Notes: generated from the sequence alone by a model not told the origin. 64,000 nt of DNA from Octopus vulgaris (GCA_951406725.2 OX597815.1:113274001-113338000); one strand, 5' to 3'. Shown: positions 2,901 through 57,511, numbered from the stretch's first letter. A program made the numbers and translations.

Positions 2901-4475
2901 CACACGTACACAAACATCAAGGACTCATGCAGTCAAAACAAGAGTGATGATTGAATCTATAAGAACAGTATTTCACGCCTCATCTCCCCTACGGCGAATT
3001 TATCGAATATGTCACCAATGAGTCACTCACTGTCTTGTTTCTATGGGAGCTTGTGTCTTGCTTAACAGCGTTCGCCTCTTTTCTAGAATTATAGATATTT
3101 TTTCTATAAGCCCAACTACTGCTTCTCCTATCTAAGGGCTAGAATAAACACTTCGTTGCTGTGCAGCCGAAAATCACAGCCATTAGTTTGCTGTCGTCTG
3201 ATGTTGACAATTAGTCACATGACGCAACTGACCTAAGAAACACTTATGAATGGAAGAGAAGTTCTCATTGAATATACACCGAGAAACCTGTCTCGTTTTC
3301 TATTTACTACTACTATACATTTACTCCCGATTTCAAATACGTTTCTATCAATTTCCGCCATATTATTATTATTTTTTTTTTTTTTGCCATCACGAAAGCC
3401 TTTCGTCGAGAGTTAACTATACTGGACCAATTGCTTCATCTTTTTTTAATAGCAATACTTTAATATAGCAGCTAAATCTCCCAGAAATCGCACTATGCAA
3501 TCGTAATAAATGAAGAACACACTGTGGAATGTAGTTTTCGATACAAAAAAAAAGACGACAAAACTACAGCTGGGATGAATCTAGCCGTATGCCAGCTCCA
3601 GCAGGTAAACAAAAGCTAAAGGCTTTACAACAAGACATCTCTTCTTGCAAGTCTGACATTTTATCTTCATATCTGATGTTCTACACTCCGTCACTTAGTC
3701 GTGCAGCTTGCTAAAAGTAGTCGTTAAATCTCCCTCAGATTACATTTTACTGACTTGAATATAGCCTGTGCTGTAAAAAGAAACATGCTCACATTTGAAA
3801 CAAATATGTTTCTGAGCATAATCAAATCGATAAATTTGCAAACTGCCCCAAAATCAACTCACACAATTTTTGGTGAAAAGCTGTTTTTAACAAAGTTTTT
3901 CTGGCGCGTTTACGGAGCCGTCGTTATACTCTAAGCAAAATTGGCAATTGCCTAGGGCGCGGCTAAAATCTGGAGGCGCCGCACAAAATTCATTAATCTA
4001 AACAAAGCCCCTGAAATCCCAATAATAATAAAGTGATCGAGAGAGGTCCCGCTCAGAACAGAGGGGAATGGAGACAGGATAGGGGTGGTTATGGGAGGCA
4101 AGAGGGTTGTTTGATGTTATGGCCAAGCAAATGAGTTGACGTGAAACATCTTAAATTTTACCAGAAACCAGATTTACACGGTGATATGCATGATAAACTA
4201 GAGATTTCTTGCGTGCAAGTCAATAAAAATTTTTTTCAAATGCATTTCAGCTGGAGTAATGAAGGTGATGGTTGGGAGTATTTGAAAAAAAATGTTAAAG
4301 GGAGTGCACAATGTAGAGTTGTAAGATAGGGAAACAAGCTGTAGAGCTGGGAGCAGAGAAGAACATTGTAGGACTAAGAGGAGTGTACAATCTAGGACTC
4401 AGTCAAGGGCACTGTTTATACCCGTTACAGGCCCTGCGCAGTCATGTGCACCATCAGGAAAAGAATCTTGTGATA

Positions 4476-5049
4476 CATCGTGACGTATATTTGCCATTTA
4501 AATATTGCTAACCCCTAAGGGTGGATGCTACTGTAGTTTGTAGCCCCATGAGGACACTTCCACCAGCTGGCTTTAGACACACTTTCTGTGCCCTATCAGT
4601 ATTTGCAAAGGGAAGCTATCCTTCCCGTCTTCAACTTATGATACACACGGACGATGTATTGCAGCTACTGTTTATAACTCGCTCTAAGATTTATTATTGC
4701 TTGATTACACCTTTTCGATATCAGTGTCTTTACGATACTGGAAAAGGGATAAGTATTTGCGAAGAGAACCTACTTTTCCTCGACAACTGTGATTGTCACA
4801 CGCCGATGACGGGTCAATACCCAGAAACTCGAGTCCATGTGTATCATAAGTTGAAGACGAGAAGGATGGCTTCCCTTTGCAAATACTGATAGGACACAGA
4901 AAGTGTGTCTAAAGCCAGCTGGAGGAGGTGTCCTCCTGGGGCTACAAACTACAGTAGCATCCACCCTTAGGGGTTAGCCATATTTAAATGGCAAATATAC
5001 GTCACGATGTGTTGCAGCTACTGTTTATAACTCGCTCTAAGATTTATTA
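4476..5049 (+). mobile_element. Non-autonomous Penelope-like element: inverted partial copy plus forward unit, 12-bp TSD
   Basis: About 4476-4652 is the reverse complement of about 4833-5009. A 44-nt direct repeat lies at 4653-4696 and 5006-5049. TSD AATCTTGTGATA at 4464-4475 and 5050-5061. Internal hammerhead motif. Confidence 0.82.
4797..4842 (+). ncRNA. Minimal type I hammerhead ribozyme motif (degenerate)
   Basis: CACACG-CCGATGA-C-GGGT caat ACCC-A-GAAAC-TCGA-GTC-CATGTG; the inverted copy preserves CGTGTG. Palindromic loop III as in PLE HHRs. Two lesions: U4>C and a C-A mismatch at 10.1-11.1. Confidence 0.75.
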
Positions 5050-26837: not shown

Positions 26838-27092
<255 letters not shown>

Positions 27093-27599
27093 ATACATTT
27101 CCTTTATAACAGTTTGTATTTTCAAGTTTCATAGTAGGAAACATTGGAACAATTTAAAAAGACAAGTATAAAAAAAAAAAACACTTGATTAGAGTGAGAA
27201 CTATATAACATTCCAAGCATTACTCTGTTCCCAAAGAAGATGCTTGGGAGAAAATATTTAACAGGTGTGGGCAACAGCAAAAACAGAAAACTGAAAAGAT
27301 AAAAAGAAATAAAGAGTATAAAAGTAAAAAAAAAAAAAAAAAAGAAAAAAGATAGAATTGAAATTCTAATGTAGTTACAGTCAATTAATTGGTATGTTGA
27401 GTTGTAGATTAGTTTAAGTGAACTATGATATGTTTCATTTCATGCATGGTTTACAATATATCTTACTTCTTGGGTAATACATGTATCTTTTAATTCAGAT
27501 GTGTTGCTTTCTCTTTTATAACGTATATGGACCATCATGAGTTTTATATCATCAACTAGAATGTCTTAATAAGTAGGTTGTGCATCTGTATGTGTGTAC

Positions 27600-27658
<59 letters not shown>

Positions 27659-27804
27659 AAAAGCAATAAAGATTCAAGTTAATTTAAATGAATTTACTTG
27701 AATATGGTACCTAACTTAGATGCACCAAAAAAACTATACTGATTTAACAATACAGTAATGTGGGGTGATTATAAGCAAGAATGAAGCAACAAGAATGGAT
27801 AGGT

Positions 27805-27895
27805 TTTTAGTACAATCGTTTCATACAAGGACAGGTTTTATTAAAAGTTGCAAAAATTACAGCATATAAACGTGTCCCGTACTCATCAGCTAAAA
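27805..27895 (-). ncRNA. Type I hammerhead ribozyme motif with extended stem II
   Basis: Minus: TTTTAG-CTGATGA-GTACGGGACA..TGTCCTTGTAT-GAAAC-GATT-GTA-CTAAAA. Full core, GUA site. Confidence 0.8.
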
Positions 27896-28563
27896 TACAT
27901 GTGAGTTCTCTAGACATCCTAGTGGTTGAGGCTATACTCATGAAGTAATGTAGATAATTAAGTAACATAAACAGATTTCAAAAGTTCATTAAAGTTCTTT
28001 AAAGATGATGTACAGTCTTATCACAGAATTTTAAAAAAAGTCTTAATAGCATCACAGAGGAGGTGACCTAATCCATAGTGCACATATGAATTTCCAGAGA
28101 TATGATGAGGGATTACATACTCACAGAAGACAAATTTATCCATTGTTAATTACAACGAGGTGGGTTTCAATTCCTGCTTATTAGCATTACAGAGAGGGTG
28201 AATTAATCCTTTGTACAAAGGATTAATTCACCCTCTCTGTAATGCTAATAAGCAGGAATTGAAACCCACCTCGTTGTAATTAACAATGGATAAATTTGTC
28301 TTCTGTGAGTATGTAATCCCTCATCATATCTCTGGAAATTCATATGTGCACTATGGATTAGGTCACCTCCTCTGTGATGCTATTAAGACTTTTTTAAATT
28401 CTGTGATAAGACTGTACATCATCTTTAAAGAACTTTAATGAACTTTTGAAATCTGTTTATGTCACTTAATTATCTACATTACTTCATGAGTATAGCCTCA
28501 ACCACTAGGATGTCTAGAGAACTCATATGTATTTTAGCTGATGAGTACGGGACATGTTTATAT

Positions 28564-28792
28564 TTTGTTTTGTTTTTTGTTTTTCCAGTTTCAGCTCTTG
28601 AGCTGTGGCCATGCTGGGGCACCGCCATTGTGGTGAAAGAGTACAGCAGGGATCACCACCCCCTGCCGGAGCCTCGTAGAGCTTTTAGGTGTTTTCGCTC
28701 AATAAACACACACAACGCCCGGTCAGAGAATCGAAACCGCGATCCTGCGACCGCGAGTCCGCTGCCCTAACCACTAGGCCATTGCGCCTCCA
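28564..28792 (-). mobile_element. Short chimeric SINE inserted in the right palindrome arm
   Basis: Family C head plus GGCGGTGCCCCAGCATGGCCACAGCTCAAGAGCTGAAAC tail; absent from the left arm. Confidence 0.88.
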
Positions 28793-28890
28793 CGTAATTA
28801 TGCTGTAATTTTTGCAACTTTTAATAAAACCTGTCCTTGTATGAAACGATTGTACTAAAAACCTATCCATTCTTGTTGCTTCATTCTCGC

Positions 28891-28926
<36 letters not shown>

Positions 28927-29109
28927 GCATTACTCTTGTACTCTTCCACTCTTTTACTTGTTTCAGTCATTTGACTGAGGCACTACCTTAAAGGGTTTTA
29001 GTCAAAGAAATCACCCCCAAGGCTTATTTTTTGTAAGCCTAGTACTTATTCTATCAGTCACTTTTTACTGAACTACTAAGTTATGGAGATGTAAACACAT
29101 TAGCGTAGA

Positions 29110-29443
29110 CATAGGAGTGGCTGTGTGGTAAGTAGTTTGCTTACCAAACACTTGGTTCCGGGTTCAGTCTCACTGCTGGGCACCTTGGGCAAGTGCCTTC
29201 TGCTGTAGCCTCGGGCCAACCAAGGCCTTGTGAGTGGATTTGGTAGATGGAAACTGAAGGAAGCCTGTCGTATATATGTATAAATATATGTATATGTGTA
29301 AACTTAGTAGTTTGGCAAAAGAGATCAATAGTATAAGTACTAGGCTTACAAAGAATAAGTCCTGGGGTCGATTTGCTCAACTAAAGATGGTGCTCCAGCA
29401 TAGCCACAGTCAAATGAATGAAACAAGTAAAAGAGTAAAAGAG
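29110..29443 (+). mobile_element. SINE family B
   Basis: Head and tail match the other copies; an inverted partial copy lies at 28935-29100. Confidence 0.88.
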
Positions 29444-29561
29444 TATATATATACACACACAGACATGCAGGAAGTAAACAGATACCTTTAATTTTTAAAA
29501 TCTTTTATTTAATACATAAAGTGAACAATTGAAATGTAATCGATAGGTAGGACTTCATACT

Positions 29562-29980
29562 TTAGTATTTAGTTGACATTCCCTTTGCAGTTTTTAATTT
29601 AGAAACTCTTTTTGGCATTGAACTGATGAGCTTTGTGATTGTCTCTTGTGGAATTTCTGCCCACTTTTCACGCAGCAATTGAAACAATTCATCATTAGAT
29701 TTAGGTTTCTGTTGAGTTTTTCATATAGCTCTGTCTAGCATGCTCCAAAGATTTTCAATTGGGTTCCTGTCAGGAGATTGACTTGACCAAGGAAGCTTTT
29801 TGTCCTATTTTCAGTGAGCCATTGTTTATTCCTTTTCACTGTGTGGCATGGAGCCCCATCTTCCATGAATAAAAACTCATTTTTCATTATGTTATCGTGT
29901 GAATACTTTGGAAGTAGTCCTTGCTTAAGTATTTCAATGTATTTTTCAGAGTTTATGGTTCCAATACATTTAATCAGCCT
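29562..29980 (-). pseudogene. Tc1 (DD34E) transposase C-terminal fragment
   Basis: GTINSEKYIEILKQGLLP..FLFMEDGAPCH..WSSQSPDRNPIENLWSMLD..AKGMSTKY*. Confidence 0.88.
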
Positions 29981-55885: not shown

Positions 55886-55886
55886 G

Positions 55887-56353
55887 CAAGTCAAAAATAG
55901 AAAATGCTAAAATAATTTTATAGTGAACATTTCAGTACCGGTTTCGGTCATTTTGAGACCTTTTCAACTGTAACGATTAAATAATTAAATTTAGAAAAAT
56001 TAGAAGAAAAGTTTTTTAAAGGAATATTTCTATAGTAGTGTTCAGATATAAGTGGCATTCTGCCTTTCTCTGACTCCTTGTTTGCACTTGTGTGTTCGAG
56101 CTCGAACACACAAGTGCAAACAAGGGAGTCAGAGAAAGGCAGAATGCCACTTATATCTGAACACTACTATAGAAATATTCCTTTAAAAAAACTTTTCTTC
56201 TAATTTTTCTAAATTTAATTATTTAATCGTTACAGTTGAAAAGGTCTCAAAATGACCGAAACCGGTACTGAAATGTTCACTATAAAATTATTTTAGCATT
56301 TTCTATTTTTGACTTGTTTTTTCATATATATCAACTCGTGTGTTCCTTTTCAC

Positions 56354-56356
<3 letters not shown>
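55887..56356. mobile_element. Palindromic Penelope-like insertion in (TA)n
   Basis: Spacerless palindrome centred on 56100/56101 (TTCGAG|CTCGAA). Arms 55887-56100 and 56101-56316 differ by two 1-nt indels; 40-nt unpaired tail. Confidence 0.88.
56228..56275 (+). ncRNA. Minimal type I hammerhead with U3-A8 core variant (mirror copy about 55927-55974, minus strand)
   Basis: CGTTACAG-TTGAAAA-GGTC tcaaaat GACC-GAAAC-CG-GTA-CTGAAATG. Confidence 0.78.
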
Positions 56357-56430
<74 letters not shown>

Positions 56431-57026: not shown

Positions 57027-57511
57027 GGGGCTAATGCAGATTCGCACCTCACCTTCAAAAATGCATTTTTCTGAAAAGGTTTATTCGGATTCCTAGGTTT
57101 TACATATCGGAGATTACGAATATGCAAAAAAAAAAAAAAAAAAAAATTAATTTTAACCACCTCCCAACCTAAACCCCCCACCCCATTTTTAAATGTATTG
57201 CTGTATAATTGAAGTGAGGTATGTAAAGGGCACTTTCTATGTTCATTTAGGCTAAATTGCAGAAACTGTTTCGGTATTGTTGTTGAAATCCCCGTATTCT
57301 TCTGTTACATATCGCCTTCAATGAAATTTCCGCACTTTAATATACAACACTATACATTTAAAATTGGGGGTGGGGGTAGGTTGAGGTGGAGGTTTTTTTT
57401 GTTTTTTTTGTTACATATTCGTAATCTCCGACATGTAAAACCTAGGAATCCGAAAAACTTTTTTCAGAAAAATGCATTTTTCAATATGAAGTGCAAATCT
57501 GAATTAACCTC
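57027..57511. mobile_element. Long-TIR MITE (possibly Sola-type)
   Basis: About 185-bp imperfect inverted arms 57027-57215 and 57333-57511; GRGG..CCTC termini. Confidence 0.8.

Follow-up and report, generated by a model that had tools for sequence, protein, structure and literature searches.

A lopsided head-to-head palindrome in a (TA)n repeat of Octopus vulgaris read as a clipped insertion of a Hydra-clade Penelope-like element

A stretch of 64,000 nt of the Octopus vulgaris genome (GCA_951406725.2 OX597815.1:113274001-113338000), called the window here, contains at positions 27657-28890 a lopsided palindrome within a (TA)n microsatellite (Table 1). We concluded that the locus is a clipped insertion of a Penelope-like element (PLE) of the known Hydra clade type, in a layout that has already been published, and not a new system. 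An earlier note made from the sequence alone had described a spacerless centre at 28214/28215 with (TA)n on either side, which was borne out by a repeat search and by the sequence. The search returned an inverted repeat with arms at 28031-28214 and 28215-28398 (184 nt, 99% complementary, 0 nt spacer), which continued outwards in 27852-28037/28390-28575 (95%) and outermost in 27770-27874/28791-28895 (95%). Direct alignment of the arms, with a short interspersed nuclear element (SINE) removed from the right one, left about 445 nt that were common to both. By this alignment the left side had 112-113 extra element bases without counterpart on the right side; this 112-nt tail (27657-27769) is found on the left only and was absent from the remarks of the earlier note, which also gave the element no name. 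The element family of the palindrome occurs only once in the window.

At the point where the window folds back, the upstream sequence in other copies of the family reads ...GCATCTAT|ACAAAGG. Since these copies run on upstream past the centre of the window, the centre is the break point of an insertion and not an end of the element. In full copies, arm position 1 is preceded by a native T, and a self-complementary TA of 2 nt may underlie the join.

Up to the SINE, the two arms were distinguished by 3 substitutions and a 2-nt difference in length; when 20 further arms of the family were compared, all four states turned out to be private to the right arm. Near the outer end, one more substitution was private to the left arm. 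The SINE (28564-28793, minus sense, about 230 bp, followed by 5 filler bases) lies in the stem II loop of the hammerhead ribozyme motif of the right arm, as noted before. Its ends were set from an alignment of 12 copies and agreed within 1-3 nt with the 28564-28792 given earlier. The duplication at the insertion point was at most 3 nt (TAT). The SINE entered the right arm after the palindrome had formed. A genome search with the SINE gave 2042 first-look candidates, of which 40 were scored and were 97-100% identical. ARAGORN found no tRNA in 27000-29600, so that a tRNA origin of the SINE head is without support. Other copies of this SINE (loci L075-L085) were often located in TA repeats (about 6-7 of the 11 that were aligned), and their tail was (A)nC-rich.

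These differences between the arms also bear on the question whether the palindrome might be an assembly artefact, or a later inverted duplication produced by replication or repair of the host. Chimeric long reads can yield perfect palindromes, and the centre of the palindrome was unconfirmed by public short-read contigs. However, the SINE is present in one arm only, four differences are private to one arm, the flanks differ between the two sides and are each unique, and the same layout was seen in 38/38 other pairs (see below), in TA repeats wherever this was checked. We therefore consider an artefact or a host duplication highly improbable. That the palindrome is real, as argued in the earlier note, was upheld by the arm-specific SINE and the four differences private to the right arm.

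Table 1. Features of the palindrome and of its target repeat (positions in the window)
Feature	Position	Strand	Basis or remark
Left part of the (TA)n target microsatellite	27601-27656	.	Sequence; TA outside both ends in 11/11 insertions examined
Tail on one side, covering element bases 446-558, where the 5' untranslated region of full copies starts	27657-27769	-	Ends at long end ...TTATTGCTTTTTG|TATATA
Left arm, 5'-truncated piece of pseudo-long terminal repeat/3' untranslated region, arm positions 445 to 1, element sense on minus strand	27770-28214	-	98.4% to full copy
Intact type I hammerhead motif; CUGAUGA at 27889-27883, GAAA, helix III ACGAUUGU, predicted cut 27811/27810	27805-27895	-	Motif scan; without Rfam match
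Spacerless head-to-head join	28214-28215	.	Repeat search
Right arm, inner part, arm positions 1-350	28215-28563	+	Arm alignment
Hammerhead copy of the right arm; intact core, stem II interrupted by the SINE	28532-28860	+	Sequence compared to the left-arm motif
SINE (28564-28793) and 5 filler bases, in the TATAT stretch of the right hammerhead stem II arm	28564-28798	-	Copy alignment
Right arm, outer part, arm positions 348-445	28799-28890	+	Ends at short end ...CATTCTCGC(G)|TATATA
Target microsatellite (TA)n, right part	28892-28923	.	Sequence

When the left arm was used as query in the 2.8-Gb genome, 1723 first-look candidates were obtained. The 40 candidates that were scored were 98-100% identical and spanned the entire query, with 557 nt covered in 38 of them and 555-556 nt in the other two. 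A query from the 5' region of the open reading frame (ORF) of the element gave only 173 first-look candidates, about ten times fewer, as expected from a 5'-truncation bias. The arms in the window represent the last 445 and 557 nt of a repeat unit of 4.6 kb. Both arms matched the 3' untranslated region (UTR) and pseudo-long terminal repeat (pLTR) of ORF-bearing copies end to end with 97-98% identity, and copies of the family continued upstream into the ORF without a break. The full copy L064 consists of an inverted 5'-truncated copy followed by a direct repeat of 1206 nt (the pLTR, 99.4%) on either side of the ORF, the repeat period being 4602 nt. An uninterrupted ORF of 954 aa was seen in one copy in L065. 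An inverted 5'-truncated copy with variable truncation was present at the 5' side of family copies.

Inverted 5'-truncated copies and a tail on one side only are published features of PLEs, as described in PMC8557442 and PMC3846280. The earlier note had taken the head-to-head design as that of a family separate or out of the ordinary; instead, the locus shows the standard insertion architecture of PLEs known from these two sources. That note had also considered the persistence of the palindrome surprising. This view was not borne out, since the inverted truncated copy, the one-sided tail, the hammerhead in the pLTR and the (TA)n target are all standard PLE architecture.

The ORF protein had 32 homologues of about 700 aa with E values down to 3.5e-95, and the only named one is a protein of Octopus sinensis. 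YRDD and the other reverse transcriptase (RT) blocks were conserved in 30 homologues. An AlphaFold model of the 954-aa ORF, built on the homologue alignment, had a mean pLDDT of 75.3, with values above 90 for the domains. In a Foldseek comparison of this model to the PDB, ranks 1-8 were occupied by telomerase TERT chains (E 1.1e-8 to 2.4e-7), and these were followed by DRT9, more TERT, retron, DRT2, group II intron, LINE-1 and R2 RTs and viral RNA polymerases. A profile search against PDB sequences returned only a marginal match to a retron RT (E 0.0011), and the ESM Atlas returned unnamed clusters with HTH_animal, DUF8422 or RVT_1. The predicted fold suggests that the RT of the ORF belongs to the telomerase-like lineage, with weak support from sequence-only searches. 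The greater length of the protein from L065 (P0002, L065:2889-5750, minus strand) compared to its homologues of about 700 aa goes along with two asparagine-rich inserts at residues 484-571 and 660-811, which are disordered in the model. In the C-terminal part, GIY-YIG-like blocks (VIY...YLG...R..H...E...N) were conserved in the homologue alignment, and residues 832-924 adopt a beta-beta-alpha-alpha-beta-alpha layout in the predicted structure of the whole ORF.

For the Hydra clade of PLEs, Craig et al. (2021, PMC8557442, section 11) listed RWK, a DKT that replaces DKG, CxCX5C, and both CxxC and CxH around conserved E and N residues. The same section describes canonical hammerheads and insertion almost always into (TA)n. 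The clade is further characterised by the absence of an internal CCHH motif and a length of generally <3 kb. P0002 contains IRWK, ADKT, CKCRIKSKC (CxCX5C), VIY...YLG, CQLC and CVH, all conserved in the 30-sequence alignment. Since this motif set is the one on the published Hydra list, the element was assigned to the Hydra clade of PLEs with C-terminal endonuclease. With respect to the internal CCHH motif that this clade lacks, we noted that in P0002 one Cys follows VIYK and another follows YLG, both missing from most homologues. The placement is based on these motifs and on a comparison by eye with the published sequences, in which the conserved blocks of the clade's supplementary alignment appeared to line up with the ORF. 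The element shares with the clade RWK, DKT, CxCX5C, CxxC/CxH, a C-terminal GIY-YIG-like domain, a canonical hammerhead and insertion into (TA)n. It differs from the clade by an ORF of 954 aa, due to the two asparagine-rich inserts, and by a tail of 112 nt instead of 30-40 nt.

A Hydra-clade element from Octopus bimaculoides, Hydra-1_Obim, is listed with 2507 bp and a (TA)n target in the supplement of Craig et al. (2021, PMC8557442). The element of O. vulgaris has a 4.6-kb unit and a 1.2-kb pLTR, whereas the 2507 bp of Hydra-1_Obim are annotated with 'no pLTR'. Its hammerhead has a stem II arm of 60 nt and the core CUGAUGAG, in contrast to the short stem II and CUGAAGAG of Hydra-1_Obim. The family, with its 4.6-kb unit, 112-nt tail, long-stem-II hammerhead and asparagine-rich ORF inserts, may be uncurated.

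The outer boundaries of the insertions are fixed. The short end is located 41 nt past the predicted hammerhead cut, and the long end 112 nt beyond the short end. Both directly abut TATATA in the insertions, and TA repeats were present outside both ends in all 11 insertions inspected. In full copies TA-rich sequence also follows both end positions (CGC-TTATAAT and TTG-AATATATT). The tail between the two positions corresponds to the start of the 5' UTR, about 80 nt ahead of the ATG, and runs into the ORF in full-length copies. A genome-wide search for the exact junction patterns with TATATA gave 341 long and 284 short ends, while the reversed controls gave 0. Pairs were counted on four contigs (C1-C4) for which the lists of both ends were complete (93 long and 74 short ends), taking ends that stood head-to-head within 12 kb. 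All 38 head-to-head pairs were composed of one long and one short end, with no long+long, no short+short and no tail-to-tail pair. The same combination was found in 15/15 cases of a separate sample, which was collected with a query favouring neither end. The one-sided extension of 112 nt, present in 38/38 pairs, is longer than the published tails of 30-40 bp. The family has two fixed outer ends, and one of each is present per insertion.

Long inverted arms, fixed outer ends and high abundance would also be expected for a miniature inverted-repeat transposable element (MITE) or a foldback DNA transposon with terminal inverted repeats (TIRs), and the earlier note had named fixed termini together with TIR-type target site duplications (TSDs) as the signature of a MITE. 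The outer termini were indeed fixed, as two alternative ends, but TIR-type ends were absent, and autonomous copies encode RT and a putative endonuclease, which identifies the family as a retroelement and not a MITE. The outer ends are unequal and not mirror images of each other, TSDs are unreadable in (TA)n, the inner join differs in each copy, and full copies code for RT and a GIY-YIG-like domain and not for a transposase. The steep fall in copy number toward the 5' end (1723 versus 173 candidates) also speaks against a DNA transposon, which we regard as the least credible of the explanations.

We scanned both strands of the whole window for type I hammerheads, requiring CUGANGA, a helix II of at least 3 bp, GAAA, a helix III of at least 2 bp, UH and a helix I of at least 4 bp. 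The only match was at 27895-27805 on the minus strand, which confirmed the full-core motif with long stem II that had been pointed out at this position. Helix I has 6 bp and helix III has 2 bp with the loop GAUU. The 60-nt stem II arm consists of GUAC/GUAU, one bulged U, GGGACA/UGUCCU and an extension of about 40 nt. Helix III and its loop form the octamer ACGAUUGU, which is self-complementary with two G-U pairs. All core positions were present and were invariant across 8 sequences of two subfamilies. The core was thus also conserved in the subfamily with an arm of about 83% identity, in which helix III and loop form the perfect palindrome ACAAUUGU. The motif is located in the pLTR part of the element. 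Cleavage is predicted after GUA, between 27811 and 27810, and probably would occur only as a dimer or with the help of a protein. The hammerhead fold had a free energy of -10.5 kcal/mol compared to -12.5 kcal/mol for the minimum free energy (MFE) fold, and the plain MFE fold of the region was ordinary (z 0.17). In a dead stub insertion, the hammerhead would not be expected to have a role.

Cervera and de la Pena (2014, PMC4209133) described type I hammerheads of metazoan PLEs with a helix III of 1-2 bp and a small palindromic loop, which work as dimers, and also 'dual' motifs that are located 100-700 bp apart on opposite strands. By that description the motif in the window is similar in being type I, in its position in the pLTR, in the 6-bp helix I and in the bulged base of stem II, as well as in the 2-bp helix III that forms a self-complementary octamer with its small loop, both here and in the older subfamily with ACAAUUGU. 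It differs by the stem II extension of about 60 nt.

A non-coding insertion with a type I hammerhead might be taken for a non-autonomous hammerhead retrozyme or another gene-less ribozyme repeat, the more so as animal retrozymes were reported to be derived from PLE pLTRs in a preprint by Li et al. (2026). Yet the arms run colinear to the UTR in copies that carry the ORF (97-98%), family copies run unbroken into the ORF, and no tandem array of short units was seen. It is therefore very unlikely that the locus represents a retrozyme.

Inner joins were mapped on a genomic reference copy for 36 of the 38 pairs, two pairs of >9.8 kb being omitted, and L153 was excluded since the length of its short arm did not suffice for mapping, which left 35 pairs. 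The break points of the two arms were not more than 20 nt apart in 18/35 pairs, while shuffled partners gave a mean of 1.77 and a maximum of 9 such pairs in 20000 shuffles. Break points within 7 nt of each other were found in 11/35 pairs compared to 0.91 expected. The join in the window is one of five exact joins. Among the near-symmetric but unequal joins, the short-end arm was ahead in 13/14 (one-sided binomial 0.0009). The 16 clearly asymmetric pairs were split into 9 with the long arm and 7 with the short arm reaching further. The spacers of some joins were small fold-backs or local duplications (L087, L105). Alignment of family copies showed that the join differs from copy to copy, in agreement with the earlier suggestion that the fold-back point varies per insertion. 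The two arms of an insertion differed at 19/3917 sites (0.49%), compared to a mean of 0.89% when arms were re-paired, and 0 of 7297 derangements gave a value as low.

Two loci, L145 (C3:29549854-29550493) and L154 (C4:38440973-38441619), have the same 209/209 join at a native 10-nt palindrome, TCTTTAAAGA. This common join is either a hot spot or a duplicated locus. The three smallest pairs (L116-L118, identical to L123, L135 and L138) contain about 193-212 bp of the element, with break points at 419, 407 and 404 in the long arm and at 402, 402 and 391 in the short arm. We considered whether these pairs represent 5' ends of hammerhead-cleaved RNA. The joins are near, but not at, the 404/405 cut site, and microhomology at GTAC could account for them instead; the positions give no more than a hint, and the idea was not adopted.

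Palindromes of this kind could be formed by snap-back of a single cDNA, whose 3' end would fold back and be copied outward to give the second arm. The spacerless centre in the window and the near-symmetric joins in 18/35 pairs agree with this, as do the spacers that are themselves fold-backs or local duplications (L087, L105) and the 209/209 join at a native 10-nt palindrome in two loci. Moreover, palindromes at inverted junctions of PLEs were read as products of self-priming by Arkhipova et al. (2013, PMC3846280). However, the copy of one cDNA must end at the start of that cDNA, while 38/38 pairs had unequal ends. If the long end were made first and the copy stopped at the first TA-rich site, a loop would be expected in the long arm, but the short arm was ahead in 13/14 joins. 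If the short end were made first, there would be no template for the extra 112 nt. We consider snap-back unlikely, although it is the strongest of the competing explanations.

Very probably, the window contains head-to-head, 5'-truncated ends of a Hydra-clade PLE in (TA)n that arose by one integration, with both cut strands likely priming RT at two internal sites. Nicks made by the GIY-YIG-like endonuclease in the two strands of the TA repeat would provide two 3' ends of the target, of which one would prime cDNA from the short site and its partner from the long site, likely on a single RNA. Both start sites are TA-rich (CGCTTATAAT and TTGAATATATT). The two cDNA tips would pair, and each would be completed on the other, which would produce the palindrome. 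An exact spacerless centre would mean that both cDNAs halted at the same position of the RNA, and the small lead of the short arm would fit two enzymes that follow each other on one RNA, one leading and one trailing. The rule of one long and one short end, the symmetric joins and the lead of the short arm fit two RT starts on one RNA, and it is from this fit that we infer the step. In twin priming of L1, which generates the 5' inversions of LINE-1, both target strands likewise prime on the element RNA and an inverted segment results. L1 twin priming joins different parts of one RNA, and its products are thus without palindrome and without two fixed 3' ends.

Purified PLE protein was shown to cut and extend both strands and to start reverse transcription from two adjacent internal sites, the tail being the stretch between them (Frangieh 2024, PMC11167929). 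In the same study the protein was predicted to be a dimer, and hammerhead cleavage was unnecessary in vitro. The element studied there, Poseidon PAc of Anolis, resembles the octopus family in that both strands are cut and extended, in the two adjacent internal RT starts with the tail between them, in the preference for AT-rich targets and in a hammerhead near the pLTR-ORF junction. Elements of the Penelope/Pen2a_Av type (Arkhipova et al. 2013, PMC3846280) share with it an inverted 5'-truncated copy that adjoins a direct copy, a tail on one inverted pLTR only, palindromes at inverted junctions and asparagine-rich ORF inserts, the last as described in rotifer PLEs. They belong to a different PLE clade, and the insertion in the window differs in consisting of two truncated ends only, with TSDs unreadable in the TA repeat.

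Several observations weigh against this reading of the locus as a Hydra-clade PLE insertion primed from both strands. The unit of 4.6 kb is longer than the <3 kb general for the clade, the excess being mostly asparagine-rich inserts and a long UTR. On C1-C4, the exact patterns left 55 long and 36 short ends unpaired. PAc in vitro used its start sites without strand difference and without homology to the cut DNA (PMC11167929), unlike the octopus family, in which both ends are at TA-rich sites, 112 nt apart, with one of each site per insertion (38/38). The Pfam search with whole proteins gave no matches. With the typed domain pieces only, RVT_1 reached E 6.9e-4 (19.8 bits, under the cut-off of 29.6) and GIY-YIG reached E 5.6e-3 (17.4 bits, under the cut-off of 22.6), and among the homologues E<=0.01 was reached for RVT_1 by 1/30 and for GIY-YIG by 2/30. 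With these profile scores and the predicted fold in the whole-ORF model, the C-terminal domain is a putative GIY-YIG-like endonuclease. The hammerhead scan also matched 12/100 dinucleotide shuffles of the window (mean 0.12), so the motif alone is only weakly beyond chance. Compensatory base-pair changes were found in 0/31 pairs among the 8 sequences, which are too alike. Rfam detected no hammerhead in the window, either at the gathering score (0 matches) or at E<=10 (none among 37 matches); the stem II extension of about 60 nt is probably the cause of this. Finally, the junction of the locus was not confirmed in 4 sets of public short-read contigs, which were swamped by repeat copies and are uninformative either way on the locus and its expression; among the contig pieces listed, none covered the stretch from end to end, and none of the rows shown had a joint at the centre. 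The sub-threshold miRNA-like matches to Rfam merely reflect the long hairpin.

A more specific form of the proposed integration is that both start sites are used exactly once per integration, one per strand and on the same RNA, with the leading RT at the short site and the trailing RT 112 nt behind, and that the tips pair and are copied when the trailing enzyme catches up. We regard this as a tentative model that is less likely than not. If true, head-to-head palindromes would be regular products of a two-headed (dimeric) integration complex and not accidents. The join would then mark the point where the leader stalled, and the lead of 2-23 nt of the short arm would correspond to the footprint of the enzyme.

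Some neighbouring structures in the window have a related appearance. Directly to the right of the same TA tract, a second head-to-head structure (28926-29445) joins an abundant SINE, present in full on the plus strand (about 29117-29445), to an inverted 5'-truncated copy (about 28930-29105). The 3' ends of the two copies face outward into TA repeats, and on the left the outer end exceeds that on the right by about 13 nt. It looks like the signature of a PLE insertion on a SINE. The palindrome at 55886-56370, referred to in the earlier note as the 56-kb palindrome, lies between TA repeats and is centred at 56102/56103, and only its right end is extended, by 40 nt. This palindrome contains a hammerhead-like stretch with GAAAC-CGGUAC, in which the first core box is degenerate (UUGAAAA) and which was therefore not scored by the scan. 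This structure probably belongs to another family of PLE or retrozyme type. Two further inverted repeats, at 4475-5010 (178-nt arms, 96%, 180-nt spacer) and at 57029-57509 (117-nt arms, 87%, 247-nt spacer), had no TA-repeat flanks in the stretch read and no hammerhead core.

The locus itself is an ordinary dead, clipped insertion, and long inverted repeats of this kind are abundant in the genome. The case shows that Rfam models miss hammerheads with a long stem II, and that Hydra-clade PLEs can escape annotation when their Pfam scores are weak. Knowledge of the integration mechanism of PLEs is at an early stage, the system of Frangieh (2024) being the first in vitro system. The rule for the outer ends and the statistics of the joins are the only parts that are likely to be of interest to specialists. 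In this young family of high copy number, the end rule, the symmetry of the joins, the lead of the short arm and the likeness of the arms within a pair constrain models of how PLEs generate inverted repeats.

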